DNA of 64,000 nucleotides from positions 1,612,001-1,676,000 of the forward strand of contig OZ024758.1 of assembly GCA_964016885.1 (NCBI GenBank), written 5' to 3'. A model generated the notes under the pieces. It searched no databases and was not told where the DNA came from. It worked only from the letters and a program-made list of their open reading frames with translations. Made by a program: the position numbers and the translations under genes. Shown piece by piece: positions 8,001 through 54,319 of this stretch; the first letter of the stretch is position 1, and every line of letters starts with the position of its first letter. The DNA is from Eledone cirrhosa (taxonomy: Eukaryota).

Positions 8001-8330
8001 TATCTATCTATTTATCTATCTAAATCAAAAACCATTATTATTGTCCCTCAGCTTGGGACATGCAGTCTTAGGTTAGGTCCAATGTGGTGTGACTTCTCCT
8101 CAGATTACTTATCCTATTACATTACAATGTATAACCTTCATTAGAAATATTGACGCTTTCTCTAGTTTCCTATTATATTATTCACTAATCGAGTTATCGA
8201 TTATTGATTTCATTTTTGCTTCGTTTCCATTCTTCCATTTCTATGTCTTAATAGGCAACTAAAAAGCTTAATTTTTTAATAACACTAATGACACCCAAAC
8301 GTATATATACGTGCGTAGGTGCTTGTATAT

Positions 8331-8383
<53 letters not shown>

Positions 8384-8385
<2 letters not shown>

Positions 8386-8568
8386 AACGAGTAGGACCCC
8401 GATGGCTGAGCTCAAGCCGTTTCGACGGCTAATTCCAGAATTAGCCGTCGAAACGGCTTGAGCTCAGCCGTCGGTGTCCTACTCGTTCCTATTACCCACT
8501 CTACTACCCTAAGTATTGAGTACTTTGGTGCGTTATGGTTCACCTTGTTCCTTACCACATTTCCTTCG

Positions 8569-8570
<2 letters not shown>
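8384..8570 (+). mobile_element. (TA)n-embedded fold-back hairpin element, copy 2
   Basis: About 50-bp inverted arms plus the shared tail ending CCACATTTCCTTCGTT, with (TA)n flanks. Confidence 0.85.
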
Positions 8571-8607
<37 letters not shown>

Positions 8608-8727
8608 AATGAATATATGATAGGGATAAACACTGATACGAGTATACATGTGTTTGTATTGCAAATGACCAAGTTAGCTAGATTCCTTTCTTTGAACTAT
8701 TTAATTGTAAAAGACTATTTGAGTTTA

Positions 8728-10919: not shown

Positions 10920-13259
10920 GACAGACAGGTGGACTGACAGACAGACAGGTGGACTGACAGACAGGTGGACTGACAGACAGGTGGACTGACAGACAGGTGG
11001 ACTGACAGACAGACAGGTGGACTGACAGACAGGTGGACTGACAGACAGGTGGACTGACAGACAGACAGGTGGACTGACAGACAGACAGGTGGACTGACAG
11101 ACAGACAGGTGGACTGACAGACAGGTGGACTGACAGACAGACAGGTGGACTGACAGACAGGTGGACTGACAGACAGACAGGTGGACTGACAGACAGACAG
11201 GTGGACTGACAGACAGACAGGTGGACTGACAGACAGGTGGACTGACAGACAGGTGGACTGACAGACAGGTGGACTGACAGACAGACAGGTGGACTGACAG
11301 ACAGGTGGACTGACAGACAGGTGGACTGACAGACAGACAGGTGGACTGACAGACAGACAGGTGGACTGACAGACAGACAGGTGGACTGACAGACAGGTGG
11401 ACTGACAGACAGGTGGACTGACAGACAGGTGGACTGACAGACAGACAGGTGGACTGACAGACAGGTGGACTGACAGACAGGTGGACTGACAGACAGACAG
11501 GTGGACTGACAGACAGACAGGTGGACTGACAGACAGACAGGTGGACTGACAGACAGGTGGACTGACAGACAGACAGGTGGACTGACAGACAGGTGGACTG
11601 ACAGACAGACAGGTGGACTGACAGACAGACAGGTGGACTGACAGACAGACAGGTGGACTGACAGACAGGTGGACTGACAGACAGACAGGTGGACTGACAG
11701 ACAGGTGGACTGACAGACAGACAGGTGGACTGACAGACAGACAGGTGGACTGACAGACAGACAGGTGGACTGACAGACAGGTGGACTGACAGACAGACAG
11801 GTGGACTGACAGACAGGTGGACTGACAGACAGACAGGTGGACTGACAGACAGACAGGTGGACTGACAGACAGACAGGTGGACTGACAGACAGACAGGTGG
11901 ACTGACAGACAGGTGGACTGACAGACAGATGGACTGACAGACAGGTGGAGTGACAGACAGACAGGTGGACTGACAGACAGACAGATGGACTGACAGACAG
12001 GTGGACTGACAGACAGGTGGACTGACAGACAGGTGGAGTGACAGACAGACAGGTGGACTGACAGACAGACAGATGGACTGACAGACAGGTGGACTGACAG
12101 ACAGACAGGTGGACTGACAGACAGGTGGACTGACAGACAGATGGACTGACAGACAGGTGGACTGACAGACAGATGGACTGACAGACAGGTGGACTGACAG
12201 ACAGATGGACTGACAGACAGGTGGACTGACAGACAGGTGGACTGACAGACAGACAGGTGGACTGACAGACAGGTGAACTGACAGACAGACAGATGGACTG
12301 ACAGACAGGTGGACTGACAGACAGATGGACTGACAGACAGGTGGACTGACAGACAGACAGATGGACTGACAGACAGGTGGACTGACAGACAGATGGACTG
12401 ACAGACAGGTGGACTGACAGACAGGTGGACTGACAGACAGGTGGACTGACAGACAGGTGGACTGACAGACAGACAGGTGGACTGACAGACAGACAGATGG
12501 ACTGACAGACAGACAGGTGGACTGACAGACAGGTGGACTGACAGACAGGTGAACTGACAGACAGGTGGACTGACAGACAGGTGGACTGACAGACAGACAG
12601 GTGGACTGACAGACAGACAGATGGACTGACAGACAGGTGGACTGACATACAGACAGGTGGACTGACAGACAGACAGATGGACTGACAGACAGGTGAACTG
12701 ACAGACAGACAGATGGACTGACAGACAGGTGGACTGACAGACAGATGGACTGACAGACAGGTGGACTGACAGACAGATGGACTGACAGACAGGTGGACTG
12801 ACAGACAGATGGACTGACAGACAGGTGGACTGACAGACAGGTGGACTGACAGACAGGTGGACTGACAGACAGGTGGACTGACAGACAGACAGGTGGACTG
12901 ACAGACAGACAGATGGACTGACAGACAGACAGGTGGACTGACAGACAGGTGGACTGACAGACAGGTGGACTGACAGACAGGTGGACTGACAGACAGGTGG
13001 ACTGACAGACAGACAGGTGGACTGACAGACAGACAGATGGACTGACAGACAGGTGGACTGACAGACAGACAGGTGGACTGACAGACAGACAGATGGACTG
13101 ACAGACAGGTGGACTGACAGACAGACAGGTGGACTGACAGACAGACAGATGGACTGACAGACAGGTGGACTGACAGACAGACAGGTGGACTGACAGACAG
13201 ACAGATGGACTGACAGACAGGTGGACTGACAGACAGACAGGTGGACTGACAGACAGACA
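10920..13259. repeat. GACA satellite array 1, units (GACA)2-3-GGTGGACT with increasing GATGGACT
   Basis: Mixed 16- and 20-bp units; abuts the 3' end of Tx1 copy 1. Confidence 0.98.
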
Positions 13260-13483
13260 AATTTCTGTTTATTTGCCACTAGGGCACAAAAGAAAGGGAC
13301 ATGTACATGGGTGGGGGGAGTTTACATAAAAATCGAGTAAGAAAAATATAACAAACAAAATAATAACAAGAAGGTCCTCAATAGGGAGGGATCGTTTTGG
13401 GGTCACACACACCCCCGAAAAAAAGTGTGCGACCCTTCTCCACGGGAGCACAAAGAGAGGGTGCTCCCTTCTTTCTGTTCCAC

Positions 13484-16400
13484 CTACAGGCTGAGGTAGA
13501 GAGAAGGCCCATTCACACGGGCCATTCTCGCAACTTTCACCCACCTTTCATAAAACTGGCTGGAGTGGAGCACCTCTCTCTCCATCCTGATCCTTCTTCC
13601 GAAATGGTATCGGAAGAAAAGGACCAGTTGTTGGCCGGAGAGAAAGGTGTCCGACCTCAGCCCTTTCAGACGCGTCCACCATATAGCCTCTTTTACCATG
13701 GCTATTACACAGAGGAAGACCGCCTCTCCTTCATTTTTGAAGGGGGGAGGTGGCTTGATCGTTACAATGGACTCGGTGGTCAACCTAATTGGTCCCACCC
13801 GTGACAGCAGTCGTTCGACATAGCCCCACAGATCGGCAACGCCCGGGCAGTGCACCAATGCGTGCGCGACGGTTTCCTCGTCGCGCACGCATCTGGGACA
13901 GATCTTTTTCGAGGGGTCCCTACCCGGGCGCCCGTGTCTGTAGAGCTTATCCCGAACGGGCAGAGCCCCTCGGTAGCACTGCCAGGCCAAGGACTTCTGG
14001 AAGTTGTCCATAGGTCCCGGGCCGAAAGTCCTACCGAATAGACTGGCCAGTTCGTCCTCCTCCATGCCTAGGGCTTCTCCGAGGGCGTCGTCGCACCCGC
14101 TAACCACCAGCCCTCTATAGAATGACGAGGTGGAGTCTCCGTCGATAGCCGGGTCCGCCTGCCAGAGAGCCGTGAGCGCCTGGGCACACTCGGTGTGCCA
14201 GTCGCCCAGTTTTCTCGGTCTTTGCTTCACCCAGGACTGCAGCTCGGTGAGCGAGACGAGCCTCGGGAAGGCTCGCCTCACAAACGGGGCCCACACCGGT
14301 TGACCGGTGAGGAATACGTGGAGGTGCCTTAGCCTCAATGCGTGTTTACGCATTTTTAGCCACGGCATCCCCAGCCCTCCTTTCAAAGGGTGTTGACAGC
14401 AGATGGATCTCCTCACCAGAGGAGACCTCTTCTTCCAAAGGAAATAAAAGAGGGCGCGCTCCATTTTGGCGAGGATCTCACCCGGGCAAGGCACGACAGT
14501 CAAGCGGTAATAGATGACGGACGCTATGTAAGCATTCGCCACCTCCGCCCGACCTTTTAGGGATAGTTTGCACTCGGCCCACTTCTGGGTCAGTGCAAAC
14601 ACCCTATTCGTCACCTCACCCCAGTTTTTCTCCACCTGGAGGTCCGGTCCGAACCAGACCCCAAGCAACTTCACCGGGCCCTCCGTCCACCGTCCGACGA
14701 TACCGTCGCACGACATCGCTTTGCCCCTCCACTCGCCGAGTTGCAAAGCGACTGACTTGTCCCGGTTCAGCTTAGCCCCTGTCAACCTTTCGTACTCCTC
14801 TAGTAAGGTGCCGATTGCCTCGATTTCCGAGGCGGTCGACACCATTACTGTTACGTCATCGGCGTAGGCCGACACCGCTTTGCGCAATCCCGGTTCCAAA
14901 GGGATGCCCTGCAACAACTCCAACTTCCGCAGTAATGGCTCGAGAGTCAACACATACAGAAGGGAGGAGAGAGGGCACCCCTGTCGGATGGAGCGGGTGA
15001 TTTCGAACGGCTCCGAAAGGTAGCCGTTCACCTTGACTCTAGAGCAGATGCGGCTGCTGTGCATGGCAGTGATCCAGCCCCTGAAAACGGGTCCGAACCC
15101 AGCCGCCGCTAGCACCGCATCCAGGTAACCATGGTCCACTCTATCGAACGCTTTAGACTGATCTAAATTTATCAGGGCCCCACCAAAGCCGGGTTCGTTC
15201 CCAACCCTCTCTATGATGTATCGCATGAGGTGGAGGTTGTCGTGGATGGACCTGGACGGGATAGCGCATGTCTGCGCATCTCCCACCAGTCCCCCCACGA
15301 CAAGCGCCAACCTCTTCGCTAACACCTTCGCCAAAATCTTTAACTCTGCATTTAGCAGAGTTATGGGCCTAAAATTACTAATGTCATCCCCCTTGTTCTC
15401 GTCCTTCCTCACTAGCGAGACTACGCCCTTGGTCACAGAACAGGGAATTCTCCCGTTCTGTTGCCAGTTGCAGTAGACCGCCTCGAGGAGATCGGGGAAC
15501 AAGTCCGGCATATTAATATATAGTTCGTAGGGCAGACCATCGAGTCCTGGAGATTTGCGTTTGCCGCATAGGCTCAGCACGTCCCCTATTTCAGCAGCTG
15601 AGATCGGCCCGTCGCAGGACCTCGCCTCCCTGTCCGAAAGACGCGGCAGGCCGTCGAGGTATGGACCGAAATCCACACCTCCAACCGGCTCCCCGCCCCT
15701 CCCGAACAATTGGGCAAAGTGCCTTTGAAAGGCCTCGCACATTTGCTTAGGTTCAAGGATCAGCCGTCCATCCTGGTCTCGCAAAGACCGGATAGTGGAT
15801 TTAATCCCACTTTTCGCTTCTGTCACGCGGGCCCAGCTAACAGCTTTGGTCCCCTCGTTTCCCAGAGCACGTATTTTGCTTCGGACAACGCAGCCTTCGT
15901 GTTTCGCGTCGAAGAACTGGTTCAAGACCGTTCTCGACGCTTGCACTCTGGCCACGTTGCCGCTTCTCATTGCCTCTTCAACATTAACTACCAACTCCCT
16001 TTCCTTCCTATTTCTATCTGAGGCTAACTCCTTACTAACTCCTATTGAAACTACTCTAATCTCTCTTTTTAGAGAGCCCCACCACCTGTTGTTGACGATG
16101 GCGCCCGTCAACTGCTCCTTAACTAAGGTTCTAATCCGGTCCCTGTAAGCTCTACTTGCCGGTAAGGACAAGTTGAGCTTCCAGTAACCGGGCCCCTGCC
16201 TATGCGTTCTATCAAGGTGGACTACGCAGGTCACTAACTTGTGGTCTGAATAGCCCACCATGAGCATTTCTGGACAACTTAAAAAGTCCCTATCCTTAAT
16301 TCTAACTAAGAACCTATCTAGGTACGATCTAGATTGACCACTGTTATTTGACCAGGTCCAGGTTGGTACAGTCGGAAAATCTAGTCGGTATCTATCGGCC

Positions 16401-16921
16401 AGGTCGAATCGACCGATTAACCCCTTAAGGCTGTTACACCCCCCTCTATCGGGACATGCCCCTACATAGTCCCAACGTGCATCTAGGATACCATTCCAGT
16501 CCCCCACTAAAAGCAAGGAGCGGGACGTCCCTAGAAAAGTCTCCAGACGATGGAAGAAGTCCGACCGCATTGCCCCAAAAGGGGCGTATACGGCGACAAG
16601 CCTAAAAGCTTCGCCTTCGCCATTGCCAAGGTCCAGAACCACGAGTCGACCCTCCGGGTCCAAGTGTACCGTCTGTGTAGCGAGACCCAGATGTTTTTGC
16701 AGCAGAACGACAACCCCACCCCCACCTCCGGGCTGACAGAGAGATGCGTGCATCTCAAAGTCATCAAAGGTGGGGGTTAGCTGTCGCATGCTGCTGATCC
16801 GGGCCTCGCAAATAACCATCACATTTACACATTGTGACCTGAAGTCACTTAGAAGTTTAGCTTGCTTCCAAGGTGAGCCCAGGCCACGCGCATTTAGACA
16901 ACCCACTCTTAAGACAGCCAT
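13484..16921 (-). CDS. ORF2p: AP-like endonuclease, reverse transcriptase and C-terminal CCHC zinc finger (1145 aa)
   Basis: APE motifs LNARGL, E, GDWN, LDRF and SDH; Tx1-typical GPGYWKLN; RT motifs KSPGLDG, FRPITLLN, KAFDRV, QGCPLS and YADD; CPRC-x8-H-x4-C. Confidence 0.97.
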   Translation of the reverse strand: MAVLRVGCLNARGLGSPWKQAKLLSDFRSQCVNVMVICEARISSMRQLTPTFDDFEMHASLCQPGGGGGVVVLLQKHLGLATQTVHLDPEGRLVVLDLGNGEGEAFRLVAVYAPFGAMRSDFFHRLETFLGTSRSLLLVGDWNGILDARWDYVGACPDRGGCNSLKGLIGRFDLADRYRLDFPTVPTWTWSNNSGQSRSYLDRFLVRIKDRDFLSCPEMLMVGYSDHKLVTCVVHLDRTHRQGPGYWKLNLSLPASRAYRDRIRTLVKEQLTGAIVNNRWWGSLKREIRVVSIGVSKELASDRNRKERELVVNVEEAMRSGNVARVQASRTVLNQFFDAKHEGCVVRSKIRALGNEGTKAVSWARVTEAKSGIKSTIRSLRDQDGRLILEPKQMCEAFQRHFAQLFGRGGEPVGGVDFGPYLDGLPRLSDREARSCDGPISAAEIGDVLSLCGKRKSPGLDGLPYELYINMPDLFPDLLEAVYCNWQQNGRIPCSVTKGVVSLVRKDENKGDDISNFRPITLLNAELKILAKVLAKRLALVVGGLVGDAQTCAIPSRSIHDNLHLMRYIIERVGNEPGFGGALINLDQSKAFDRVDHGYLDAVLAAAGFGPVFRGWITAMHSSRICSRVKVNGYLSEPFEITRSIRQGCPLSSLLYVLTLEPLLRKLELLQGIPLEPGLRKAVSAYADDVTVMVSTASEIEAIGTLLEEYERLTGAKLNRDKSVALQLGEWRGKAMSCDGIVGRWTEGPVKLLGVWFGPDLQVEKNWGEVTNRVFALTQKWAECKLSLKGRAEVANAYIASVIYYRLTVVPCPGEILAKMERALFYFLWKKRSPLVRRSICCQHPLKGGLGMPWLKMRKHALRLRHLHVFLTGQPVWAPFVRRAFPRLVSLTELQSWVKQRPRKLGDWHTECAQALTALWQADPAIDGDSTSSFYRGLVVSGCDDALGEALGMEEDELASLFGRTFGPGPMDNFQKSLAWQCYRGALPVRDKLYRHGRPGRDPSKKICPRCVRDEETVAHALVHCPGVADLWGYVERLLSRVGPIRLTTESIVTIKPPPPFKNEGEAVFLCVIAMVKEAIWWTRLKGLRSDTFLSGQQLVLFFRYHFGRRIRMEREVLHSSQFYERWVKVARMARVNGPSLYLSL

Positions 16922-16944
16922 GTTGGTGGCAAAGAAAGAGGCAC

Positions 16945-18702
16945 TTACCTCTCTGCGTCCCGGGGTTCGGGTCGCTCAGTTTCCATGGGGCTGGTGGCGG
17001 GGTTGACGGGTGGGGTGGTGGTTTGTGGTGGTGTGGGGGTATTGGTGTGTGGAGGGGTTGGGATCTTTGGAGTTGTGTGGGTGTTTGAGGAGGGGAGGGG
17101 AAAACCTTTCAGGAGGACGCGGTTGAGTGGCCTGGTGCAGGGTGGGCCCACGTCCTCAGGGTACATGTCTTTTAAAGTTTTAAAAATGTCAAGTGGGATT
17201 TTCACCATTTTCAGGTTAGGGAGCCCCATTGCCGTTACGAAATTCGGCCCTTCGGTTTGTATCGAAGGGTTGGTTTCTATTTTTAAAGTTAGGTTTTCAT
17301 TGTTTTTGTTTATGTATGTGTAGAGTTTTTGTGTTGTTGTGTTTGTTTTTGCTTGTTGTTGTTGAGTGAGTTTGCGTTTTATTGTCTGTGTTGTGTTGTC
17401 AGGTGGGGTTATTTTTGTTGTTGTGGTGTGTGTACGTTTTTTTCTTTTCACTTTTTGGAAGGGAGCCCCCTCGTCTTCCGACGATATGAGCTCCTCTTCC
17501 GTATTGGAGGGGAGGGGTATATCTCCGGGTTGTGTATGAACTGTTTTTGTATTTGTGTTCTGTGGGGTGGGGCTGGGTGGGACCGTGTTTTGGGTTGTTT
17601 TCTTGAGCTGTTGTTGATGTTGTTGTTGTTGTGGTGGTGGTGGTGGTGTTGTTGTTGGTTTTTGTTGTTCTGGTGGTGATGGTAGTGTATTTTGTTGTTT
17701 TTGTGATGGTGGTGCTGGTTGTTTTTGTTGTTGTTGTGGTGTTTGTAGCAGTGGTTTTTTTGTTGTTAGTAGAGGGCAGGCCGTCCTCAGGTGACCTCTG
17801 CCAGCGCAGTGGTAACATGAGGGTCTCCTGCCTTCCACTGTGATATTTATGTAGGTTCGCCCATCCAGTAGCACTCGGTCGGGTATTCCGGAGATTCTCT
17901 CAGGTGTCATCTGTAAGAGAACCTCCAGACTTTTCCCCCCGAACAGTCCACTGGTGGACTCCCCTGCTGAAATTAGTATGTCCTTATCTAGGTCGGTAAA
18001 TCCTGTTAGGACGGACCAGATGTTAATTTCTGGCGTAGGGCTCCACATTCTTATCCTTTGTGTTCTTCTTCCTTTATATGTGGGGAAGAAGGTGTATTGT
18101 GGTGACACTATAGGTGCCACCGAATATTTCTGAGCCAGCATTTCGTCCTTCATTCGGACCATAATGCTGGCATACAGCTTTCCTCTTTGAATAAAGAGTA
18201 TGTCATTTTTAATTTCTTTCAGAACCAGCTCGATTTGACTTTCGGTCAATTGCGCTGGCTTTCTCGTTTCGTTGGTTATGGTTCTGAAGCTTACGGTATT
18301 CTTGTAAATCTGTTCACGCACTTCTTCTGGGGAGTTGATCGTAAAAGAACCATCCACCCCAAAAGATACGTATTTTCTAGCCTCTAGCAAATTTTCCTTG
18401 GCGTTCGTGATGTCAATGGCTTTGTACTCCGTGGCTCTCTTGAGTGTTTGGGCAAAAGAAATTTTGTCTTTGTTTGTTGTTGTAATGTTGTTGGTTTCCT
18501 TATTTGTGGTGTTATTTTTTTCTTGAAAATTAATTTTTTCATTTGAATTGAAATTCTTTTTTTCATTGGAGAGGAGGGGTTGTTCAACAGTTTGAACTGT
18601 TGTTCCCTCTTTCCCGCTTGTTTTTTTGGTCGGCGTGGCGTTCGCTTCCAATATGGCGATATCGTTTTCGACGATATCGTTATCAACGATATCGATAAAC
18701 AT
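16945..18702 (-). CDS. ORF1p: gag-like nucleic-acid-binding protein (585 aa)
   Basis: Single CX2CX4HX4C knuckle (CYHCAGRGHLRTAC), Q/P/T-rich disordered region and basic KVKRKKR. Lies upstream of ORF2 and is intact in both copies. Confidence 0.92.
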   Translation of the reverse strand: MFIDIVDNDIVENDIAILEANATPTKKTSGKEGTTVQTVEQPLLSNEKKNFNSNEKINFQEKNNTTNKETNNITTTNKDKISFAQTLKRATEYKAIDITNAKENLLEARKYVSFGVDGSFTINSPEEVREQIYKNTVSFRTITNETRKPAQLTESQIELVLKEIKNDILFIQRGKLYASIMVRMKDEMLAQKYSVAPIVSPQYTFFPTYKGRRTQRIRMWSPTPEINIWSVLTGFTDLDKDILISAGESTSGLFGGKSLEVLLQMTPERISGIPDRVLLDGRTYINITVEGRRPSCYHCAGRGHLRTACPLLTTKKPLLQTPQQQQKQPAPPSQKQQNTLPSPPEQQKPTTTPPPPPQQQQHQQQLKKTTQNTVPPSPTPQNTNTKTVHTQPGDIPLPSNTEEELISSEDEGAPFQKVKRKKRTHTTTTKITPPDNTTQTIKRKLTQQQQAKTNTTTQKLYTYINKNNENLTLKIETNPSIQTEGPNFVTAMGLPNLKMVKIPLDIFKTLKDMYPEDVGPPCTRPLNRVLLKGFPLPSSNTHTTPKIPTPPHTNTPTPPQTTTPPVNPATSPMETERPEPRDAER

Positions 18703-18717
18703 TTCTCAAATATTTAT

Positions 18718-18741
18718 TTTTCACCCCAAAAGGGGTGAAAA
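18718..18741 (-). promoter_or_regulatory. Perfect 10-bp stem-loop in the 5'UTR, about 15 nt before the ORF1 ATG (also at 32625-32648)
   Basis: TTTTCACCCC-AAAA-GGGGTGAAAA. Function is inferred only. Confidence 0.5.
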
Positions 18742-18876
18742 TATATTTACCCGACGTCTAGAGTCCCAGACTAGGGGTTACAGTTAATTATACAAAATAA
18801 TTCAAAAAAATCCACTCACAAAATTAGCAGGTAAAAATCCAAATCACAGAGCGATATGACACACGTCTACTATCCT

Positions 18877-21800
18877 CAGACAGACAGACAGACAGACAGA
18901 TGGACTGACAGACAGATGGACTGACAGACAGATGGACTGACAGACAGGTGGACTGACAGACAGATGGACAGACAGACAGGTGGACTGACAGACAGGTGGA
19001 CAGACAGACAGGTGGACTGACAGACAGGTGGACTGACAGACAGACAGATGGACTGACAGACAGATGGACTGACAGACAGGTGGACAGACAGACAGGTGGA
19101 GTGACAGACAGGTGGACTGACAGACAGGTGGACAGACAGACAGGTGGACTGACAGACAGGTGGACTGACAGACAGGTGGACTGACAGACAGGTGGACTGA
19201 CAGACAGGTGGACAGACAGACAGGTGGACTGACAGACAGGTGGACTGACAGACAGACAGATGGACTGACAGACAGATGGACTGACAGACAGATGGACTGA
19301 CAGACAGGTGGACTGACAGACAGGTGGACTGACAGACAGACAGATGGACTGACAGACAGGTGGACTGACAGACAGACAGGTGGACTGACAGACAGGTGGA
19401 CTGACAGACAGGTGGACTGACAGACAGACAGGTGGACTGACAGACAGGTGGACTGACAGACAGACAGGTGGACTGACAGACAGACAGGTGGACTGACAGA
19501 CAGGTGGACTGACAGACAGACAGATGGACTGACAGACAGGTGGACTGACAGACAGATGGACTGACAGACAGGTGGACTGACAGACAGACAGGTGGACTGA
19601 CAGACAGGTGGACTGACAGACAGGTGGACTGACAGACAGACAGGTGGACTGACAGACAGATGGACTGACAGACAGATGGACTGACAGACAGATGGACTGA
19701 CAGACAGATGGACTGACAGACAGACAGATGGACTGACAGACAGATGGACTGACAGACAGATGGACTGACAGACAGATGGACTGACAGACAGACAGGTGGA
19801 CTGACAGACAGACAGATGGACTGACAGACAGGTGGACTGACATACAGACAGGTGGACTGACAGACAGACAGATGGACTGACAGACAGGTGGACTGACAGA
19901 CAGACAGGTGGACTGACAGACAGACAGATGGACTGACAGACAGGTGAACTGACAGACAGACAGATGGACTGACAGACAGGTGGACTGACAGACAGATGGA
20001 CTGACAGACAGGTGGACTGACAGACAGATGGACTGACAGACAGGTGGACTGACAGACAGATGGACTGACAGACAGGTGGACTGACAGACAGGTGGACTGA
20101 CAGACAGGTGGACTGACAGACAGGTGGACTGACAGACAGACAGGTGGACTGACAGACAGACAGATGGACTGACAGACAGACAGGTGGACTGACAGACAGG
20201 TGGACTGACAGACAGGTGGACTGACAGACAGGTGGACTGACAGACAGGTGGACTGACAGACAGGTGGACTGACAGACAGACAGGTGGACTGACAGACAGA
20301 CAGATGGACTGACAGACAGGTGGACTGACAGACAGACAGGTGGACTGACAGACAGACAGATGGACTGACAGACAGGTGGACTGACAGACAGACAGATGGA
20401 CTGACAGACAGGTGGACTGACAGACAGACAGATGGACTGACAGACAGGTGGACTGACAGACAGGTGGACTGACAGACAGACAGGTGGACTGACAGACAGA
20501 CAGGTGGACTGACAGACAGACAGGTGGACTGACAGACAGACAGGTGGACTGACAGACAGGTGGACTGACAGACAGACAGGTGGACTGACAGACAGGTGGA
20601 CTGACAGACAGACAGGTGGACTGACAGACAGGTGGACTGACAGACAGACAGGTGGACTGACAGACAGACAGATGGACTGACAGACAGGTGGACTGACAGA
20701 CAGGTAGACTGACAGACAGGTGGACCGACAGACAGGTGGACTGACAGACAGGTGGACTGACAGACAGACAGGTGGACTGACAGACAGACAGATGGACTGA
20801 CAGACAGGTGGACTGACAGACAGGTGGACTGACAGACAGGTGGACTGACAGACAGGTGGACTGACAGACAGGTGGACTGACAGACAGACAGGTGGACTGA
20901 CAGACAGACAGATGGACTGACAGACAGGTGGACTGACAGACAGGTGGACTGACAGACAGATGGACTGACAGACAGATGGACTGACAGACAGGTGGACTGA
21001 CAGACAGATGGACTGACAGACAGATGGACTGACAGACAGGTGGACTGACAGACAGGTGGACTGACAGACAGATGGACTGACAGACAGATGGACTGACAGA
21101 CAGGTGGACTGACAGACAGATGGACTAACAGAGAGGTGGACTGACAGACAGGTGAACTGACAGACAGATGGACTGACAGACAGATGGACTGACAGACAGG
21201 TGGACTGACAGACAGATGGACTGACAGACAGATGGACTGACAGACAGATGGACTGACAGACAGATGGACTGACAGACAGATGGACTGACAGACAGGTGGA
21301 CTGACAGACAGATGGACTGACAGACAGATGGACTGACAGACAGGTGGACTGACAGACAGATGGACTGACAGACAGATGGACTGACAGACAGATGGACTGA
21401 CAGACAGGTGGACTGACAGATTGATGGACTGACAGACATATGGACTGACAGACAGATGGACTGACAGACAGATGGACTGACAGACAGGTGGACTGACAGA
21501 CAGATGGACTGACAGACAGATGGACTGACAGACAGGTGGACTGACAGACAGATGGACTGACAGACAGATAGATTGACAGACAGGTGGACTGACAGACAGA
21601 TGGACTGACAGACAGATGGACTGACAGACAGATGGACTGACAGACAGGTGGACTGACAGACAGATGGACTGACAGACAGATGGACTGACAGACAGATGGA
21701 CTGACAGACAGATGGACTGACAGACAGGTGGACTGACAGACAGATGGACTGACAGACAGATGGACTGACAGACAGATGGACTGACAGACAGATGGACTGA

Positions 21801-24800
21801 CAGACAGGTGGACTGACAGACAGGTGGACTGACAGACAGATGGACTGACAGACAGATGGACTGACAGACAGATGGACTGACAGACAGATGGACTGACAGA
21901 CAGATGGACTGACAGACAGATGGACTGACAGACAGGTGGACTGACAGACAGATGGACTGACAGACAGGTGGACTGACAGACAGGTGGACTGACAGACAGA
22001 TGGACTGACAGACAGATGGACTGACAGACAGATGGACTGACAGACAGATGGACTGACAGACAGGTGGACTGACAGACAGACAGATGGACTGACAGACAGA
22101 CAGGTGGACTGACAGACAGGTGGACTGACAGACAGATGGACTGACAGACAGATGGACTGACAGACAGGTGGACTGACAGACAGGTGGACTGACAGACAGG
22201 TGGACTGACAGACAGGTGGACTGACAGACAGGTGGACTGACAGACAGACAGATGGACTGACAGACAGGTGGACTGACAGACAGGTGGACTGTCAGACAGG
22301 TGGCCTGACAGACAGACAGATGGACTGACAGACAGATGGACTGACAGACAGATGGACTGACAGACAGGTGGACTGACAGACAGATGGACAGACAGACAGG
22401 TGGACTGACAGACAGGTGGACAGACAGACAGGTGGACTGACAGACAGGTGGACTGACAGACAGACAGATGGACTGACAGACAGATGGACTGACAGACAGG
22501 TGGACAGACAGACAGGTGGAGTGACAGACAGGTGGACTGACAGACAGGTGGACAGACAGACAGGTGGACTGACAGACAGGTGGACTGACAGACAGGTGGA
22601 CTGACAGACAGGTGGACTGACAGACAGGTGGACAGACAGACAGGTGGACTGACAGACAGGTGGACTGACAGACAGACAGATGGACTGACAGACAGATGGA
22701 CTGACAGACAGATGGACTGACAGACAGGTGGACTGACAGACAGGTGGACTGACAGACAGACAGATGGACTGACAGACAGGTGGACTGACAGACAGACAGG
22801 TGGACTGACAGACAGGTGGACTGACAGACAGGTGGACTGACAGACAGACAGGTGGACTGACAGACAGGTGGACTGACAGACAGACAGGTGGACTGACAGA
22901 CAGACAGGTGGACTGACAGACAGGTGGACTGACAGACAGACAGATGGACTGACAGACAGGTGGACTGACAGACAGATGGACTGACAGACAGGTGGACTGA
23001 CAGACAGACAGGTGGACTGACAGACAGGTGGACTGACAGACAGGTGGACTGACAGACAGACAGGTGGACTGACAGACAGATGGACTGACAGACAGATGGA
23101 CTGACAGACAGATGGACTGACAGACAGATGGACTGACAGACAGACAGATGGACTGACAGACAGATGGACTGACAGACAGATGGACTGACAGACAGATGGA
23201 CTGACAGACAGACAGGTGGACTGACAGACAGATGGACTGACAGACAGATGGACTGACAGACAGACAGATGGACTGACAGACAGATGGACTGACAGACAGA
23301 TGGACTGACAGACAGATGGACTGACAGACAGACAGATGGACTGACATACAGATGGACTGACAGACAGATGGACTGACAGACAGATGGACTGACAGACAGA
23401 TGGACTGACAGACAGATGGGCTGACAGACAGACAGGTGGACTGACAGACAGATGGACTGACAGACAGATGGACTGACAGACAGACAGATGGACTGACAGA
23501 CAGATGGACTGACAGACAGATGGACTGACAGACAGATGGACTGACAGACAGATGGACTGACAGACAGATGGACTGACAGACAGACAGATGGACTGACAGA
23601 CAGATGGACTGACAGACAGATGGACTGACAGACAGACAGATGGACTGACAGACAGATGGACTGACAGACAGATGGACTGACAGACAGATGGACTGACAGA
23701 CAGACAGGTGGACTGACAGACAGATGGACTGACAGACAGATGGACTGACAGACAGACAGATGGACTGACAGACAGATGGACTGACAGACAGATGGACTGA
23801 CAGACAGATGGACTGACAGACAGACAGATGGACTGACAGACAGACAGATGGACTGAGAGACAGATGGACTGACAGACAGACAGATGGACTGACAGACAGA
23901 CAGATGGATTGAGAGACAGACAGATGGACTGAGAGACAGACAGATGGACTGACAGATGGACTGACAGACAGACAGATGGACTGACAGACAGACAGACAGA
24001 CATATGGACTGACAGACAAACAGACAGATGGACTGACAGACAGACAGACAGACAGATGGACTGACAGACAGACAGATGGACTGACAGACAGACAGATGGA
24101 CTGAGAGACAGATGGACTGACAGACAGACAGATGGACTGACAGACAGACATATGGACTGACAGACAGACAGATGGACTGAGAGACAGACAGATGGACTGA
24201 CAGACAGACAGATGGACTGACAGACAGACAGATGGACTGAGAGACAGACAGATGGACTGACAGACAGACAGATGGACTGACAGACAGACAGATGGACTGA
24301 CAGACAGACAGATGGACTGAGAGACAGACAGATGGACTGACAGACAGACAGATGGACTGACAGACAGATGGACTGACAGACAGACAGATGGACTGACAGA
24401 CAGATGGACTGACAGACAGACAGATGGACTGACAGACAGACAGATGGACTGACAGACAGACAGATGGACTGACAGACAGACAGATGGACTGACAGACAGA
24501 CAGATGGACTGACAGACAGATGGACTGAGAGACAGACAGATGGACTGACAGACAGACAGATGGACTGAGAGACAGACAGATGGACTGACAGACAGACAGA
24601 TGGACTGACAGACAGACAGATGGACTGACAGACAGACAGATGGACTGACAGACAGACAGATGGACTGACAGACAGACAGATGGACTGACAGACAGACAGA
24701 CAGATGGACTGACAGACAAACAGACAGATGGACTGACAGACAGACAGACAGACAGATGGACTGACAGACAGATGGACTGACAGACAGACAGATGGACTGA

Positions 24801-27166
24801 CAGACAGACAGATGGACTGAGAGACAGACAGATGGACTGACAGACAGACAGATGGACTGACAGACAGACAGATGGACTGAGAGACAGACAGATGGACTGA
24901 CAGACAGACAGATGGACTGAGAGACAGACAGATGGACTGACAGACAGACAGATGGACTGAGAGACAGACAGATGGACTGACAGACAGACAGATGGACTGA
25001 CAGACAGACAGATGGACTGAGAGACAGACAGATGGACTGACAGACAGACAGATGGACTGAGAGACAGACAGATGGACTGACAGACAGACAGATGGACTGA
25101 CAGACAGACAGATGGACTGAGAGACAGATGGACTGACAGACAGACAGATGGACTGACAGACAGACAGATGGACTGAGAGACAGACAGATGGACTAACAGA
25201 CAGACAGATGGACTGAGAGACAGACAGATTGACTGACAGACAGACAGATGGACTGACAGACAGACAGATGGACTGACAGACAGACAGATGGACTGACAGA
25301 CAGACAGATGGACTGACAGACAGACAGATGGACTGACAGACAGACAGACAGATGGACTGACAGACAAACAGACAGATGGACTGACAGACAGACAGACAGA
25401 CAGATGGACTGACAGACAGACAGATGGACTTACAGACAGACAGATGGACTGACAGACAGACAGATGGACTGACAGACAGATGGACTGACAGACAGACAGA
25501 TGGACTGACAGACAGACAGATGGACTGACAGACAGGTGGACTGACAGACAGGTAGACTGACAGACAGGTGGACCGACAGACAGGTGGACTGACAGACAGG
25601 TGGACTGACAGACAGACAGGTGGACTGACAGACAGACAGATGGACTGACAGACAGGTGGACTGACAGACAGGTGGACTGACAGACAGGTGGACTGACAGA
25701 CAGGTGGACTGACAGACAGGTGGACTGACAGACAGACAGGTGGACTGACAGACAGACAGATGGACTGACAGACAGGTGGACTGACAGACAGGTGGACTGA
25801 CAGACAGATGGACTGACAGACAGATGGACTGACAGACAGGTGGACTGACAGACAGATGGACTGACAGACAGATGGACTGACAGACAGGTGGACTGACAGA
25901 CAGGTGGACTGACAGACAGATGGACTGACAGACAGATGGACTGACAGACAGGTGGACTGACAGACAGATGGACTAACAGAGAGGTGGACTGACAGACAGG
26001 TGAACTGACAGACAGATGGACTGACAGACAGATGGACTGACAGACAGGTGGACTGACAGACAGATGGACTGACAGACAGATGGACTGACAGACAGATGGA
26101 CTGACAGACAGATGGACTGACAGACAGATGGACTGACAGACAGGTGGACTGACAGACAGATGGACTGACAGACAGATGGACTGACAGACAGGTGGACTGA
26201 CAGACAGATGGACTGAGAGACAGATGGACTGACAGACAGATGGACTGACAGACAGGTGGACTGACAGATTGATGGACTGACAGACATATGGACTGACAGA
26301 CAGATGGACTGACAGACAGATGGACTGACAGACAGGTGGACTGACAGACAGATGGACTGACAGACAGATGGACTGACAGACAGGTGGACTGACAGACAGA
26401 TGGACTGACAGACAGATAGATTGACAGACAGGTGGACTGACAGACAGATGGACTGACAGACAGATGGACTGACAGACAGATGGACTGACAGACAGGTGGA
26501 CTGACAGACAGATGGACTGACAGACAGATGGACTGACAGACAGATGGACTGACAGACAGATGGACTGACAGACAGGTGGACTGACAGACAGATGGACTGA
26601 CAGACAGATGGACTGACAGACAGATGGACTGACAGACAGATGGACTGACAGACAGGTGGACTGACAGACAGGTGGACTGACAGACAGATGGACTGACAGA
26701 CAGATGGACTGACAGACAGATGGACTGACAGACAGATGGACTGACAGACAGATGGACTGACAGACAGATGGACTGACAGACAGGTGGACTGACAGACAGA
26801 TGGACTGACAGACAGGTGGACTGACAGACAGGTGGACTGACAGACAGATGGACTGACAGACAGATGGACTGACAGACAGATGGACTGACAGACAGATGGA
26901 CTGACAGACAGGTGGACTGACAGACAGACAGATGGACTGACAGACAGACAGGTGGACTGACAGACAGGTGGACTGACAGACAGATGGACTGACAGACAGA
27001 TGGACTGACAGACAGGTGGACTGACAGACAGGTGGACTGACAGACAGGTGGACTGACAGACAGGTGGACTGACAGACAGGTGGACTGACAGACAGACAGA
27101 TGGACTGACAGACAGGTGGACTGACAGACAGGTGGACTGACAGACAGGTGGCCTGACAGACAGACA
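18877..27166. repeat. GACA satellite array 2 (8.3 kb) with kb-scale higher-order repeats
   Basis: Rare variants recur at fixed offsets: GGCCTG at 22304/27152 and the GGACTAACAGAGAG block at 21125/25973 (offset 4848); block 18996/22416 (offset 3420). Confidence 0.98.
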
Positions 27167-27390
27167 AATTTCTGTTTATTTGCCACTAGGGCACAAAAGA
27201 AAGGGACATGTACATGGGTGGGGGGAGTTTACATAAAAATCGAGTAAGAAAAATATAACAAACAAAATAATAACAAGAAGGTCCTCAATAGGGAGGGATC
27301 GTTTTGGGGTCACACACACCCCCGAAAAAAAGTGTGCGACCCTTCTCCACGGGAGCACAAAGAGAGGGTGCTCCCTTCTTTCTGTTCCAC

Positions 27391-30300
27391 CTACAGGCTG
27401 AGGTAGAGAGAAGGCCCATTCACACGGGCCATTCTCGCAACTTTCACCCACCTTTCATAAAACTGGCTGGAGTGGAGCACCTCTCTCTCCATCCTGATCC
27501 TTCTTCCGAAATGGTATCGGAAGAAAAGGACCAGTTGTTGGCCGGAGAGAAAGGTGTCCGACCTCAGCCCTTTCAGACGCGTCCACCATATAGCCTCTTT
27601 TACCATGGCTATTACACAGAGGAAGACCGCCTCTCCTTCATTTTTGAAGGGGGGAGGTGGCTTGATCGTTACAATGGACTCGGTGGTCAACCTAATTGGT
27701 CCCACCCGTGACAGCAGTCGTTCGACATAGCCCCACAGATCGGCAACGCCCGGGCAGTGCACCAATGCGTGCGCGACGGTTTCCTCGTCGCGCACGCATC
27801 TGGGACAGATCTTTTTCGAGGGGTCCCTACCCGGGCGCCCGTGTCTGTAGAGCTTATCCCGAACGGGCAGAGCCCCTCGGTAGCACTGCCAGGCCAAGGA
27901 CTTCTGGAAGTTGTCCATAGGTCCCGGGCCGAAAGTCCTACCGAATAGACTGGCCAGTTCGTCCTCCTCCATGCCTAGGGCTTCTCCGAGGGCGTCGTCG
28001 CACCCGCTAACCACCAGCCCTCTATAGAATGACGAGGTGGAGTCTCCGTCGATAGCCGGGTCCGCCTGCCAGAGAGCCGTGAGCGCCTGGGCACACTCGG
28101 TGTGCCAGTCGCCCAGTTTTCTCGGTCTTTGCTTCACCCAGGACTGCAGCTCGGTGAGCGAGACGAGCCTCGGGAAGGCTCGCCTCACAAACGGGGCCCA
28201 CACCGGTTGACCGGTGAGGAATACGTGGAGGTGCCTTAGCCTCAATGCGTGTTTACGCATTTTTAGCCACGGCATCCCCAGCCCTCCTTTCAAAGGGTGT
28301 TGACAGCAGATGGATCTCCTCACCAGAGGAGACCTCTTCTTCCAAAGGAAATAAAAGAGGGCGCGCTCCATTTTGGCGAGGATCTCACCCGGGCAAGGCA
28401 CGACAGTCAAGCGGTAATAGATGACGGACGCTATGTAAGCATTCGCCACCTCCGCCCGACCTTTTAGGGATAGTTTGCACTCGGCCCACTTCTGGGTCAG
28501 TGCAAACACCCTATTCGTCACCTCACCCCAGTTTTTCTCCACCTGGAGGTCCGGTCCGAACCAGACCCCAAGCAACTTCACCGGGCCCTCCGTCCACCGT
28601 CCGACGATACCGTCGCACGACATCGCTTTGCCCCTCCACTCGCCGAGTTGCAAAGCGACTGACTTGTCCCGGTTCAGCTTAGCCCCTGTCAACCTTTCGT
28701 ACTCCTCTAGTAAGGTGCCGATTGCCTCGATTTCCGAGGCGGTCGACACCATTACTGTTACGTCATCGGCGTAGGCCGACACCGCTTTGCGCAATCCCGG
28801 TTCCAAAGGGATGCCCTGCAACAACTCCAACTTCCGCAGTAATGGCTCGAGAGTCAACACATACAGAAGGGAGGAGAGAGGGCACCCCTGTCGGATGGAG
28901 CGGGTGATTTCGAACGGCTCCGAAAGGTAGCCGTTCACCTTGACTCTAGAGCAGATGCGGCTGCTGTGCATGGCAGTGATCCAGCCCCTGAAAACGGGTC
29001 CGAACCCAGCCGCCGCTAGCACCGCATCCAGGTAACCATGGTCCACTCTATCGAACGCTTTAGACTGATCTAAATTTATCAGGGCCCCACCAAAGCCGGG
29101 TTCGTTCCCAACCCTCTCTATGATGTATCGCATGAGGTGGAGGTTGTCGTGGATGGACCTGGACGGGATAGCGCATGTCTGCGCATCTCCCACCAGTCCC
29201 CCCACGACAAGCGCCAACCTCTTCGCTAACACCTTCGCCAAAATCTTTAACTCTGCATTTAGCAGAGTTATGGGCCTAAAATTACTAATGTCATCCCCCT
29301 TGTTCTCGTCCTTCCTCACTAGCGAGACTACGCCCTTGGTCACAGAACAGGGAATTCTCCCGTTCTGTTGCCAGTTGCAGTAGACCGCCTCGAGGAGATC
29401 GGGGAACAAGTCCGGCATATTAATATATAGTTCGTAGGGCAGACCATCGAGTCCTGGAGATTTGCGTTTGCCGCATAGGCTCAGCACGTCCCCTATTTCA
29501 GCAGCTGAGATCGGCCCGTCGCAGGACCTCGCCTCCCTGTCCGAAAGACGCGGCAGGCCGTCGAGGTATGGACCGAAATCCACATTTCCAACCGGCTCCC
29601 CGCCCCTCCCGAACAATTCGGCAAAGTGCCTTTGAAAGGCCTCGCACATTTGCTTAGGTTCAAGGATCAGCCGTCCATCCTGGTCTCGCAAAGACCGGAT
29701 AGTGGATTTAATCCCACTTTTCGCTTCTGTCACGCGGGCCCAGCTAACAGCTTTGGTCCCCTCGTTTCCCAGAGCACGTATTTTGCTTCGGACAACGCAG
29801 CCTTCGTGTTTCGCGTCGAAGAACTGGTTCAAGACCGTTCTCGACGCTTGCACTCTGGCCACGTTGCCGCTTCTCATTGCCTCTTCAACATTAACTACCA
29901 ACTCCCTTTCCTTCCTATTTCTATCTGAGGCTAACTCCTTACTAACTCCTATTGAAACTACTCTAATCTCTCTTTTTAGAGAGCCCCACCACCTGTTGTT
30001 GACGATGGCGCCCGTCAACTGCTCCTTAACTAAGGTTCTAATCCGGTCCCTGTAAGCTCTACTTGCCGGTAAGGACAAGTTGAGCTTCCAGTAACCGGGC
30101 CCCTGCCTATGCGTTCTATCAAGGTGGACTACGCAGGTCACTAACTTGTGGTCTGAATAGCCCACCATGAGCATTTCTGGACAACTTAAAAAGTCCCTAT
30201 CCTTAATTCTAACTAAGAACCTATCTAGGTACGATCTAGATTGACCACTGTTATTTGACCAGGTCCAGGTTGGTACAGTCGGAAAATCTAGTCGGTATCT

Positions 30301-30828
30301 ATCGGCCAGGTCGAATCGGCCGATTAACCCCTTAAGGCTGTTACACCCCCCTCTATCGGGACATGCCCCTACATAGTCCCAACGTGCATCTAGGATACCA
30401 TTCCAGTCCCCCACTAAAAGCAAGGAGCGGGACGTCCCTAGAAAAGTCTCCAGACGATGGAAGAAGTCCGACCGCATTGCCCCAAAAGGGGCGTATACGG
30501 CGACAAGCCTAAAAGCTTCGCCTTCGCCATTGCCAAGGTCCAGAACCACGAGTCGACCCTCCGGGTCCAAGTGTACCGTCTGTGTAGCGAGACCCAGATG
30601 TTTTTGCAGCAGAACGACAACCCCACCCCCACCTCCGGGCTGACAGAGAGATGCGTGCATCTCAAAGTCATCAAAGGTGGGGGTTAGCTGTCGCATGCTG
30701 CTGATCCGGGCCTCGCAAATAACCATCACATTTACACATTGTGACCTGAGGTCACTTAGAAGTTTAGCTTGCTTCCAAGGTGAGCCCAGGCCACGCGCAT
30801 TTAGACAACCCACTCTTAAGACAGCCAT
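27391..30828 (-). CDS. ORF2p (APE-RT-zinc finger), copy 2, 1145 aa
   Basis: Same motifs as copy 1. Differs at SD(F/L)R, FA(Q/E)L and VG(G/N)V. Confidence 0.97.
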   Translation of the reverse strand: MAVLRVGCLNARGLGSPWKQAKLLSDLRSQCVNVMVICEARISSMRQLTPTFDDFEMHASLCQPGGGGGVVVLLQKHLGLATQTVHLDPEGRLVVLDLGNGEGEAFRLVAVYAPFGAMRSDFFHRLETFLGTSRSLLLVGDWNGILDARWDYVGACPDRGGCNSLKGLIGRFDLADRYRLDFPTVPTWTWSNNSGQSRSYLDRFLVRIKDRDFLSCPEMLMVGYSDHKLVTCVVHLDRTHRQGPGYWKLNLSLPASRAYRDRIRTLVKEQLTGAIVNNRWWGSLKREIRVVSIGVSKELASDRNRKERELVVNVEEAMRSGNVARVQASRTVLNQFFDAKHEGCVVRSKIRALGNEGTKAVSWARVTEAKSGIKSTIRSLRDQDGRLILEPKQMCEAFQRHFAELFGRGGEPVGNVDFGPYLDGLPRLSDREARSCDGPISAAEIGDVLSLCGKRKSPGLDGLPYELYINMPDLFPDLLEAVYCNWQQNGRIPCSVTKGVVSLVRKDENKGDDISNFRPITLLNAELKILAKVLAKRLALVVGGLVGDAQTCAIPSRSIHDNLHLMRYIIERVGNEPGFGGALINLDQSKAFDRVDHGYLDAVLAAAGFGPVFRGWITAMHSSRICSRVKVNGYLSEPFEITRSIRQGCPLSSLLYVLTLEPLLRKLELLQGIPLEPGLRKAVSAYADDVTVMVSTASEIEAIGTLLEEYERLTGAKLNRDKSVALQLGEWRGKAMSCDGIVGRWTEGPVKLLGVWFGPDLQVEKNWGEVTNRVFALTQKWAECKLSLKGRAEVANAYIASVIYYRLTVVPCPGEILAKMERALFYFLWKKRSPLVRRSICCQHPLKGGLGMPWLKMRKHALRLRHLHVFLTGQPVWAPFVRRAFPRLVSLTELQSWVKQRPRKLGDWHTECAQALTALWQADPAIDGDSTSSFYRGLVVSGCDDALGEALGMEEDELASLFGRTFGPGPMDNFQKSLAWQCYRGALPVRDKLYRHGRPGRDPSKKICPRCVRDEETVAHALVHCPGVADLWGYVERLLSRVGPIRLTTESIVTIKPPPPFKNEGEAVFLCVIAMVKEAIWWTRLKGLRSDTFLSGQQLVLFFRYHFGRRIRMEREVLHSSQFYERWVKVARMARVNGPSLYLSL

Positions 30829-30851
30829 GTTGGTGGCAAAGAAAGAGGCAC

Positions 30852-32609
30852 TTACCTCTCTGCGTCCCGGGGTTCGGGTCGCTCAGTTTCCATGGGGCTG
30901 GTGGCGGGGTTGATGGGTGGGGTGGTGGTTTGTGGTGGTGTGGGGGTATTGGTGTGTGGAGGGGTTGGGATCTTTGGAGTTGTGTGGGTGTTTGAGGAGG
31001 GGAGGGGAAAACCTTTCAGGAGGACGCGGTTGAGTGGCCTGGTGCAGGGTGGGCCCACGTCCTCAGGGTACATGTCTTTTAAAGTTTTAAAAATGTCAAG
31101 TGGGATTTTCACCATTTTCAGGTTAGGGAGCCCCATTGCCGTTACGAAATTCGGCCCTTCGGTTTGTATCGAAGGGTTGGTTTCTATTTTTAAAGTTAGG
31201 TTTTCATTGTTTTTGTTTATGTATGTGTAGAGTTTTTGTGTTGTTGTGTTTGTTTTTGCTTGTTGTTGTTGAGTGAGTTTGCGTTTTATTGTCTGTGTTG
31301 TGTTGTCAGGTGGGGTTATTTTTGTTGTTGTGGTGTGTGTACGTTTTTTTCTTTTCACTTTTTGGAAGGGAGCCCCCTCGTCTTCCGACGATATGAGCTC
31401 CTCTTCCGTATTGGAGGGGAGGGGTATATCTCCGGGTTGTGTATGAACTGTTTTTGTATTTGTGTTCTGTGGGGTGGGGCTGGGTGGGACCGTGTTTTGG
31501 GTTGTTTTCTTGAGCTGTTGTTGATGTTGTTGTTGTTGTGGTGGTGGTGGTGGTGTTGTTGTTGGTTTTTGTTGTTCTGGTGGTGATGGTAGTGTATTTT
31601 GTTGTTTTTGTGATGGTGGTGCTGGTTGTTTTTGTTGTTGTTGTGGTGTTTGTAGCAGTGGTTTTTTTGTTGTTAGTAGAGGGCAGGCCGTCCTCAGGTG
31701 ACCTCTGCCAGCGCAGTGGTAACATGAGGGTCTCCTGCCTTCCACTGTGATATTTATGTAGGTTCGCCCATCCAGTAGCACTCGGTCGGGTATTCCGGAG
31801 ATTCTCTCAGGTGTCATCTGTAAGAGAACCTCCAGACTTTTCCCCCCGAACAGTCCACTGGTGGACTCCCCTGCTGAAATTAGTATGTCCTTATCTAGGT
31901 CGGTAAATCCTGTTAGGACGGACCAGATGTTAATTTCTGGCGTAGGGCTCCACATTCTTATCCTTTGTGTTCTTCTTCCTTTATATGTGGGGAAGAAGGT
32001 GTATTGTGGTGACACTATAGGTGCCACCGAATATTTCTGAGCCAGCATTTCGTCCTTCATTCGGACCATAATGCTGGCATACAGCTTTCCTCTTTGAATA
32101 AAGAGTATGTCATTTTTAATTTCTTTCAGAACCAGCTCGATTTGACTTTCGGTCAATTGCGCTGGCTTTCTCGTTTCGTTGGTTATGGTTCTGAAGCTTA
32201 CGGTATTCTTGTAAATCTGTTCACGCACTTCTTCTGGGGAGTTGATCGTAAAAGAACCATCCACCCCAAAAGATACGTATTTTCTAGCCTCTAGCAAATT
32301 TTCCTTGGCGTTCGTGATGTCAATGGCTTTGTACTCCGTGGCTCTCTTGAGTGTTTGGGCAAAAGAAATTTTGTCTTTGTTTGTTGTTGTAATGTTGTTG
32401 GTTTCCTTATTTGTGGTGTTATTTTTTTCTTGAAAATTAATTTTTTCATTTGAATTGAAATTCTTTTTTTCATTGGAGAGGAGGGGTTGTTCAACAGTTT
32501 GAACTGTTGTTCCCTCTTTCCCGCTTGTTTTTTTGGTCGGCGTGGCGTTCGCTTCCAATATGGCGATATCGTTTTCGACGATATCGTTATCAACGATATC
32601 GATAAACAT
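30852..32609 (-). CDS. ORF1p (CCHC knuckle), copy 2, 585 aa
   Basis: Identical to copy 1 apart from PP(V/I)NP. Confidence 0.92.
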   Translation of the reverse strand: MFIDIVDNDIVENDIAILEANATPTKKTSGKEGTTVQTVEQPLLSNEKKNFNSNEKINFQEKNNTTNKETNNITTTNKDKISFAQTLKRATEYKAIDITNAKENLLEARKYVSFGVDGSFTINSPEEVREQIYKNTVSFRTITNETRKPAQLTESQIELVLKEIKNDILFIQRGKLYASIMVRMKDEMLAQKYSVAPIVSPQYTFFPTYKGRRTQRIRMWSPTPEINIWSVLTGFTDLDKDILISAGESTSGLFGGKSLEVLLQMTPERISGIPDRVLLDGRTYINITVEGRRPSCYHCAGRGHLRTACPLLTTKKPLLQTPQQQQKQPAPPSQKQQNTLPSPPEQQKPTTTPPPPPQQQQHQQQLKKTTQNTVPPSPTPQNTNTKTVHTQPGDIPLPSNTEEELISSEDEGAPFQKVKRKKRTHTTTTKITPPDNTTQTIKRKLTQQQQAKTNTTTQKLYTYINKNNENLTLKIETNPSIQTEGPNFVTAMGLPNLKMVKIPLDIFKTLKDMYPEDVGPPCTRPLNRVLLKGFPLPSSNTHTTPKIPTPPHTNTPTPPQTTTPPINPATSPMETERPEPRDAER

Positions 32610-32783
32610 TTCTCAAATATTTATTTTTCACCCCAAAAGGGGTGAAAATATATTTACCCGACGTCTAGAGTCCCAGACTAGGGGTTACAGTTAATTATAC
32701 AAAATAATTCAAAAAAATCCACTCACAAAATTAGCAGGTAAAAATCCAAATCACAGAGCGATATGACACACGTCTACTATCCT

Positions 32784-36116: not shown

Positions 36117-36179
36117 AGATAAAAAGGGAGAACGGGGGATCAATAGAGAGAAAGATGAATAAGAGGTCATCTAAAATAG

Positions 36180-40975: not shown

Positions 40976-41005
<30 letters not shown>

Positions 41006-54266: not shown

Positions 54267-54319
<53 letters not shown>

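Follow-up and report, generated by a model that had tools for sequence, protein, structure and literature searches.

The window analysed here (64,000 bp from Eledone cirrhosa, the whole stretch of DNA under study) carries two full-length copies of a non-LTR retrotransposon, E1 and E2, and alignment of the copies of a 936-bp satellite block, X, directly shows E1 to have acquired this block, together with the junction of E2, from E2. The direction and extent of this one transfer are readable base by base because the donor, the recipient and the empty site of the donor all lie within 25 kb. The locus shows one case of satellite moving with a young LINE element, the carrier being either RNA or DNA repair. 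All of the components are known, namely microsatellite-targeted Tx1 elements and 5' transduction, and the locus is one well-resolved event for which the direction of transfer is fixed. The passage of satellite variants from array to array is usually credited to recombination or circular DNA. If RNA carried X, then a satellite-targeting LINE can move kilobase blocks of satellite; with DNA repair as the carrier, the locus would be a clear-cut though ordinary case of inserted elements seeding satellite rearrangement.

The region 10920-36115 is a single satellite built from 16/20-bp monomers of the form GACT(GACA)2-3G[G/A]TG, and the two elements cut it into three arrays. The features of the locus, in order, are:

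10920-13259, no strand: satellite array 1, the 3' flank of E1, with the 16/20-bp monomers
13260-18876, minus strand: E1, a full-length, intact L1-superfamily (Tx1-like) non-LTR retrotransposon of 5,617 bp, the derived copy
13484-16921, minus strand: ORF2 of E1, 1145 aa, with an AP-type endonuclease, a reverse transcriptase (YADD at 686) and a C-terminal zinc-binding domain
15678-17007, no strand: 1.33-kb stretch holding all six differences between E1 and E2
16945-18702, minus strand: ORF1 of E1, 585 aa, carrying a single CCHC knuckle (Pfam E 0.067, weak)
18877-19812, no strand: block X, the captured copy at E1, 936 bp identical to the 5' flank of E2 and including the junction CA(GACA)5GATG
19777-19814, no strand: 38-bp direct repeat of the end of E1's left flank, which sets an upper limit for the target-site duplication; the donor, too, matches it over 36 bp
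19815-20650, no strand: array-1-type sequence again after X, comprising the end of W2 and then W3 from about 19947
20653-25500, no strand: R-X-Y, the first unit of a 4,848-bp tandem duplication, without an element
22303-22322, no strand: empty site of E2, GCCT(GACA)3GATG, continuing into the element-free X (22307-23232)
25501-27166, no strand: R', the 3' flank of E2, ending in GGCCT(GACA)3, with two substitutions relative to R
27167-32783, minus strand: E2, a full-length, intact element of 5,617 bp at the GGCCT site, the donor of X
32784-36115, no strand: array 3, the native 5' flank of E2, with X' to 33719 and then Y'; one 20-bp indel relative to the empty-site unit

Array 1 ends with the repeat units W1 (from 12276) and W2 (from 12696), followed by a 56-bp triplet run. 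Array 2 holds the 4,848-bp tandem duplication, which reads R-X-Y and then R'-[E2]-X'-Y', with the two units contiguous head to tail and overlapping by 28 bp at their junction; such contiguity is absent for the element plus X. The units differ by two substitutions (R/R') and a single 20-bp indel (XY/X'Y'), and their divergence must predate E2. The echo of array 1 after X that had been pointed out in the original prediction is present as a 364-bp exact match (12649-13012 = 19900-20263). At least two monomer indels in about 0.5 kb separate W2 from W3, against one indel in about 4.9 kb for the 4.85-kb duplication, which suggests that W3 is older than the E1 event; W3 is best read as an older repeat copy and not as a product of that event. 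Nested duplications of 56, 112, 416-432, 492, 648 and 4,848 bp occur across 10920-36115, and the satellite is polar over the same interval, with GGTG monomers prevailing on the left and GATG monomers and a GAGA variant on the right. The long ORFs that run across the satellite were rejected as genes; they are a by-product of a satellite that lacks stop codons.

Both elements retain an intact ORF1 (585 aa) and ORF2 (1145 aa). The ORF2 product matches the Pfam families Exo_endo_phos (1.6e-6), RVT_1 (1.3e-26) and zf-RVT (1.2e-5, slightly below the curated cut-off), and this combination of AP endonuclease, reverse transcriptase and zinc-binding domain is the one by which the L1 superfamily is recognised. 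The endonuclease of R2 is of another type than that of E1 and E2. Among ten PDB matches, a set that offers a limited contrast as few other clades have been solved, the L1 ORF2 protein aligned over aa 7-858 with an E value of 5e-50, compared with 4e-18 for the best R2 match. The reverse transcriptase of the element thus appears nearer to L1 than to R2 among solved structures, which supports membership of the L1 superfamily. The knuckle of ORF1 lies at aa 295-310 (E 0.067, weak), and its look-alikes in the Atlas score 0.89-0.92, several of them being zf-CCHC clusters; an ORF1 with a CCHC zinc knuckle is a feature of the Tx1 clade. No match among the protein homologues of the element carried the name Tx1. 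A protein of Argonauta hians (61% identity) was the top match in the search with the shorter protein and the sole close relative bearing a species name, which makes an octopod host probable; the protein searches returned no relatives above 69% identity to the element proteins, and none of the four E1/E2 proteins is present in the protein collection searched. In Octopus vulgaris, the repeat annotation includes 13 recently active L1-Tx1 families with 421 insertions, according to the available part of PMC13282606. A hairpin-forming inverted repeat at 18708-18750 lies at the end of the AT-rich 5' UTR (about 174 bp), directly before ORF1, and gives sub-threshold Rfam matches only.

Remnants of a related family also lie in the window:

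about 7352-7530 and 7618-8000, plus strand: two sister-family 3' ends, 5'-truncated, each flanked by (TATC)n runs

The two are arranged in tandem and are 86% alike over 210 bp, and the longer one encodes an ORF2 C-terminus that is 74% identical to that of E1. E1 and E2 end in (TGTC)n and the sister-family 3' ends in (TATC)n, which fits tetranucleotide targeting; with E1 and E2 at (GACA)3 ends and both sister fragments (2/2) in (TATC)n, this preference is seen at four sites in total. On its domains and target sites, the E1/E2 family is putatively assigned as Tx1-like. It resembles the microsatellite-targeted Tx1 families Kibi, Koshi and the crocodilian Tx1, which insert into (TC)n, (TTC)n and (TTCC)n/(TTTC)n respectively, in its L1-type ORF2 with AP endonuclease and reverse transcriptase, in its insertion into a short pyrimidine-rich repeat and in a 3' end that passes straight into the repeat, as these families are described in the available part of PMC4494074. 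It differs from them in targeting (TGTC)n embedded in a composite 16/20-bp satellite, and its sister family occupies (TATC)n.

The evidence for the transfer comes from three copies of X. The sequence behind the 5' end of E1 is identical to that behind E2 over 936 bp (18877-19812 = 32784-33719), or 54 monomers in the same order, and then diverges, so that the identical 5' satellite flank of about 0.93 kb claimed in the original prediction is confirmed unit for unit, also when the monomers are encoded and compared. The longest shared monomer run in simulation was 13, 17 and 37 for Markov orders 1, 2 and 3 (150 runs each), and as 37 was the maximum against the 54 observed, the match is no chance result. 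The 3' flanks differ, as had also been claimed, and share 14 bp only (13246-13259 = 27153-27166). The rare marker GGCCT precedes E2 and not E1, as had been noted, but it is not confined to that copy, as a second occurrence lies at about 22302-22306. Directly behind this second GGCCT is the third copy of X, which is free of any element and exact over 926 bp (22307-23232 = 18887-19812); it escaped the original prediction, and together with the empty site it fixes the direction as E2 to E1. The filled site of E2 reads (GACA)3 to the left of the element and CA(GACA)5GATG to its right, so that the target duplication cannot exceed 12 bp and a further 10 repeat bases lie at the 5' end. The empty-site unit matches the flanks of E2 on both sides, and 22303-22322 with the X that follows is the empty site of E2, preserved by the 4.85-kb tandem duplication. 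The X of E1 begins with the filled junction of E2, including the same 10 extra bases. Because X stands element-free at the empty site and the copy at E1 carries the filled junction, X is native to the E2 site and was transferred from E2 to E1. At E1, X is extra 5' sequence derived from the upstream flank of the source element, which is one of the marks of a 5' transduction.

The junctions of E1 carry signs of an insertion. The arrays contain 296 (GACA)3 ends, of which 294 have 12-14 bp in common with the flank of E2, so that the 3' junction of E1 looks like any new target site. The direct repeat enclosing E1 and X is up to 38 bp long, and such matches are common in the satellite; the 36-bp junction homology is equalled at 14% of donor positions. 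Junction microhomology was rejected as a discriminator on account of this figure and of the 28-bp overlap in the DNA-level 4.85-kb duplication. When position 13259 is joined to 19815, the 56-bp triplet period runs on for 132 bp and the flanks are in phase, a continuation reached by 5 of 103 W-type resume points and 5 of 775 in total, the observed one included; this measure was picked after inspection of the data and is discounted accordingly. E1 and X together act as a 6.55-kb insertion with one end at the exact 3' end of the element, as would be seen in target-primed reverse transcription with an over-long 5' end.

E1 and E2 differ at exactly six nucleotides (15678, 15679, 15712, 16412, 16843 and 17007) and by no indels, in agreement with the earlier count of at least six. 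Five of the six differing bases sit in codons with an amino acid change. Beyond the last of them, 17008-19812 matches 30915-33719 with zero mismatches over 2,805 bases on the 13,907-bp diagonal, reaching through X. Clustering of the differences in 1.33 kb has a P value of 0.007 when they are counted as five events and 0.028 as four; for a hybrid carrying the 3' part of a sibling element the values are 0.016 and 0.045, only slightly better than for a plain copy of E2. The sole informative site for polarity is aa 27, which is L in 30 of the 32 non-gap rows among 45 homologues, and the F of E1 at this position is predicted to be derived; at aa 404 the nearest relatives are split between three Q and two E, and aa 415 is variable. 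Three of the six differences (15678, 15679 and 17007, two of them adjacent) have A in E2 and G in E1 on the sense strand. A-to-I editing is extensive in cephalopods, and it was considered as a trace of an RNA stage and dropped, as the differences amount to two of five events, are not significant, and one of them also fits CpG decay in E2.

The preferred reading, to which an even chance is assigned, is that E1 arose by target-primed reverse transcription with a 5' end templated from E2 and overshooting into X. E2 first entered a GGCCT(GACA)3 site of which a 4.85-kb unequal exchange saved an empty copy upstream, a step displayed by the empty site itself. A second round of target-primed reverse transcription may then have started from a nick at an unexceptional (GACA)3 site of array 1, giving the 3' junction of E1. 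The 5' part of the new copy would have been templated from E2 and continued 936 bp past its 5' end into the satellite, the donor of this step being evident and its route putative. Lastly, the new strand would have joined the upstream target end through in-phase satellite microhomology, leaving a short duplication of the target and no apparent loss. The empty site, the 3' junction, the in-phase rejoining, the intact ORFs and the tetranucleotide targeting all fit this insertion model; against it, clustering of the differences in 1.33 kb is not expected from a simple RNA copy of E2, and the array demonstrably recombines at the DNA level. The weights given to this and all other scenarios are a matter of judgement and were not computed.

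Two templates can be considered within the insertion model. Tentatively, the template may have been a read-through RNA begun in or beyond the satellite upstream of E2, which would make X a true 5' transduction; a somewhat fainter possibility is the DNA of E2, invaded by the cDNA of a sibling transcript. The 5' transduction put forward in the original prediction therefore fits, but so does DNA-templated copying from E2, which was not among its options. A sibling cDNA completed on the DNA of E2, or later recombination, would account for the local donor and the clean 2.8 kb at the 5' end. RNA copies seldom land 14 kb from their donor, which counts against the RNA route. No upstream promoter, host exon or ribozyme for a read-through transcript was identified within the window. 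Stop-to-stop ORFs with a minimum of 70 aa number 106 across 36100-64000, overlaps included, and look like repeats, as judged by eye, with no host exon among them, and the eight weak Rfam matches in 18500-19100 include none at the gathering score and no ribozyme. Pol III read-through from a minus-strand SINE remnant near 36300-36450 is unlikely because 36121-36361 contains five runs of at least four T on the sense strand.

Upstream target or flank sequence at 5' ends has precedent in R2 (PMC3774820), SINEU (PMC4494074) and SVA (PMC12593883). As set out in the available parts of these sources, SVA 5' transduction (PMC12593883) and the 5' extensions of SINEU-2 (PMC4494074) are alike to E1 in that the upstream flank of the donor appears on the new 5' end and can be traced to its source. 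The cargo here differs from that of SVA in being satellite, moved by an at most putative RNA route, from a source 13.9 kb away in the same array, and its 936 bp are far above the SVA median of 124 bp (PMC12593883), which also counts against the RNA route. The 5' junctions of R2, where upstream 28S sequence is duplicated from co-transcripts, likewise place upstream target-type sequence at the 5' end and illustrate that cDNA can pair with the upstream target (PMC3774820). In the available text most R2 duplications span 13-28 nt, with about 113 nt more in one case, and they are set by a ribozyme, whereas no Rfam ribozyme match is found here. Within its scope of titles and the starts of abstracts, with subscription journals mostly outside it, the literature search showed no report of kilobase satellite at Tx1 5' ends among the papers listed. 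It is doubtful that the Tx1-like family is routinely transcribed from host satellite, with new copies carrying kilobases of donor satellite at the 5' end and splicing it out of register into other arrays. Were this so, the element would mix satellite variants and disperse them by way of RNA, and each satellite head would record its source element.

The strongest alternative, though an unlikely one, is that E1 inserted independently with its own 5' flank and that E2, lying 13.9 kb from it, later passed on its 5' part and X through ectopic conversion or a pair of unequal exchanges. Every difference lies 3' of 17008 with 2,805 identical bases adjoining X, E1 and E2 are the longest homology at the locus, and the array holds DNA-level duplications (offsets of 4,848, 648, 492 and 432 bp), all of which speaks for such recombination. 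It should, however, have replaced about 0.9 kb of native flank or landed at random, while the join is in phase (5 of 103), and the zero differences in 13260-15677 are poorly explained by it (P 0.016-0.045).

A single-step DNA copy is decidedly unlikely; here array 1 would have been broken and mended with the E2 locus as template, through synthesis-dependent strand annealing or template switching, and E2 plus X inserted without reverse transcription. It would yield a seamless insertion and explain the nearness of donor and copy without a second insertion in the same array, but the start of the tract must fall within 14 bp of the 3' end of the element among hundreds of equal monomers (about 0.3-2% by hand estimate), and the clustered differences need a separate source. 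Repair-mediated capture of nearby DNA is documented in PMC2671141, where duplications attributed to synthesis-dependent strand annealing resemble the present one in that nearby DNA was copied into a site with microhomology at the junctions. The proximal events in the available part of that source measure at most 619 bp and lie no further than 5 kb away (PMC2671141). The corresponding figures here are 6.6 kb and 13.9 kb, and one boundary here is the 3' end of an element.

An assembly artefact, with a graph mis-join or polishing having placed the flank of E2 on E1, is improbable. The locus is rich in repeats and has long identical runs, and polishing can cluster differences, but the window contains no N and E1 and E2 show no indel relative to each other. 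Of the junctions, W2|E, R'|E, L|X and X|W3 are single and E|X is present in two places, and by reasoning every arrangement of the units that respects them retains two elements followed by X and one empty site. The repeat formed by the element plus X is 6.6 kb, a length that typical long reads exceed.

Two explanations from the original prediction, repeated insertion at the same higher-order-repeat position (two independent hits on the same monomer after X was duplicated) and a single unequal crossover copying element plus flank, are very improbable: the array does hold a duplicated X and a tandem duplication, but E1 has neither GGCCT nor R to its left and shares the exact 5' junction of E2 with its 10 extra bases, and the contiguous 13.9-kb tandem repeat expected from a crossover is absent, as the identical stretch reaches only 14 bp beyond the element on the left and 936 bp on the right.

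Several other repeats occur in the window. A 29-bp satellite of 43 copies at 43880-45230 appears to be the 5' head of a minus-strand SINE amplified in tandem; the reverse monomer matches the start of a SINE at about 37185, and the array runs into the remaining SINE body at about 43880-43980. Members of a (TA)n-flanked repeat family are found at 853-1135, 8326-8619, 40878-41005, 54272-54627 and 54930-55207, some with a long near-perfect palindrome, and are possibly MITE-like. The sole window-wide Rfam match, Plastid-psbJ-2 at 1024-1140, coincides with a palindrome and (TA)n in one copy of this family and is probably spurious. At 58967-59446, a minus-strand frame with a 123-bp tandem duplication resembles, by eye, the C-terminus of another LINE ORF, presumably of an RTE-like family. 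Further minisatellites, with units of 42, 35/135 and 23/43 bp, and a short telomere-like (TAACCC)n run are located at 2-645, 38789-39477, 45498-45854 and 40654-40682.
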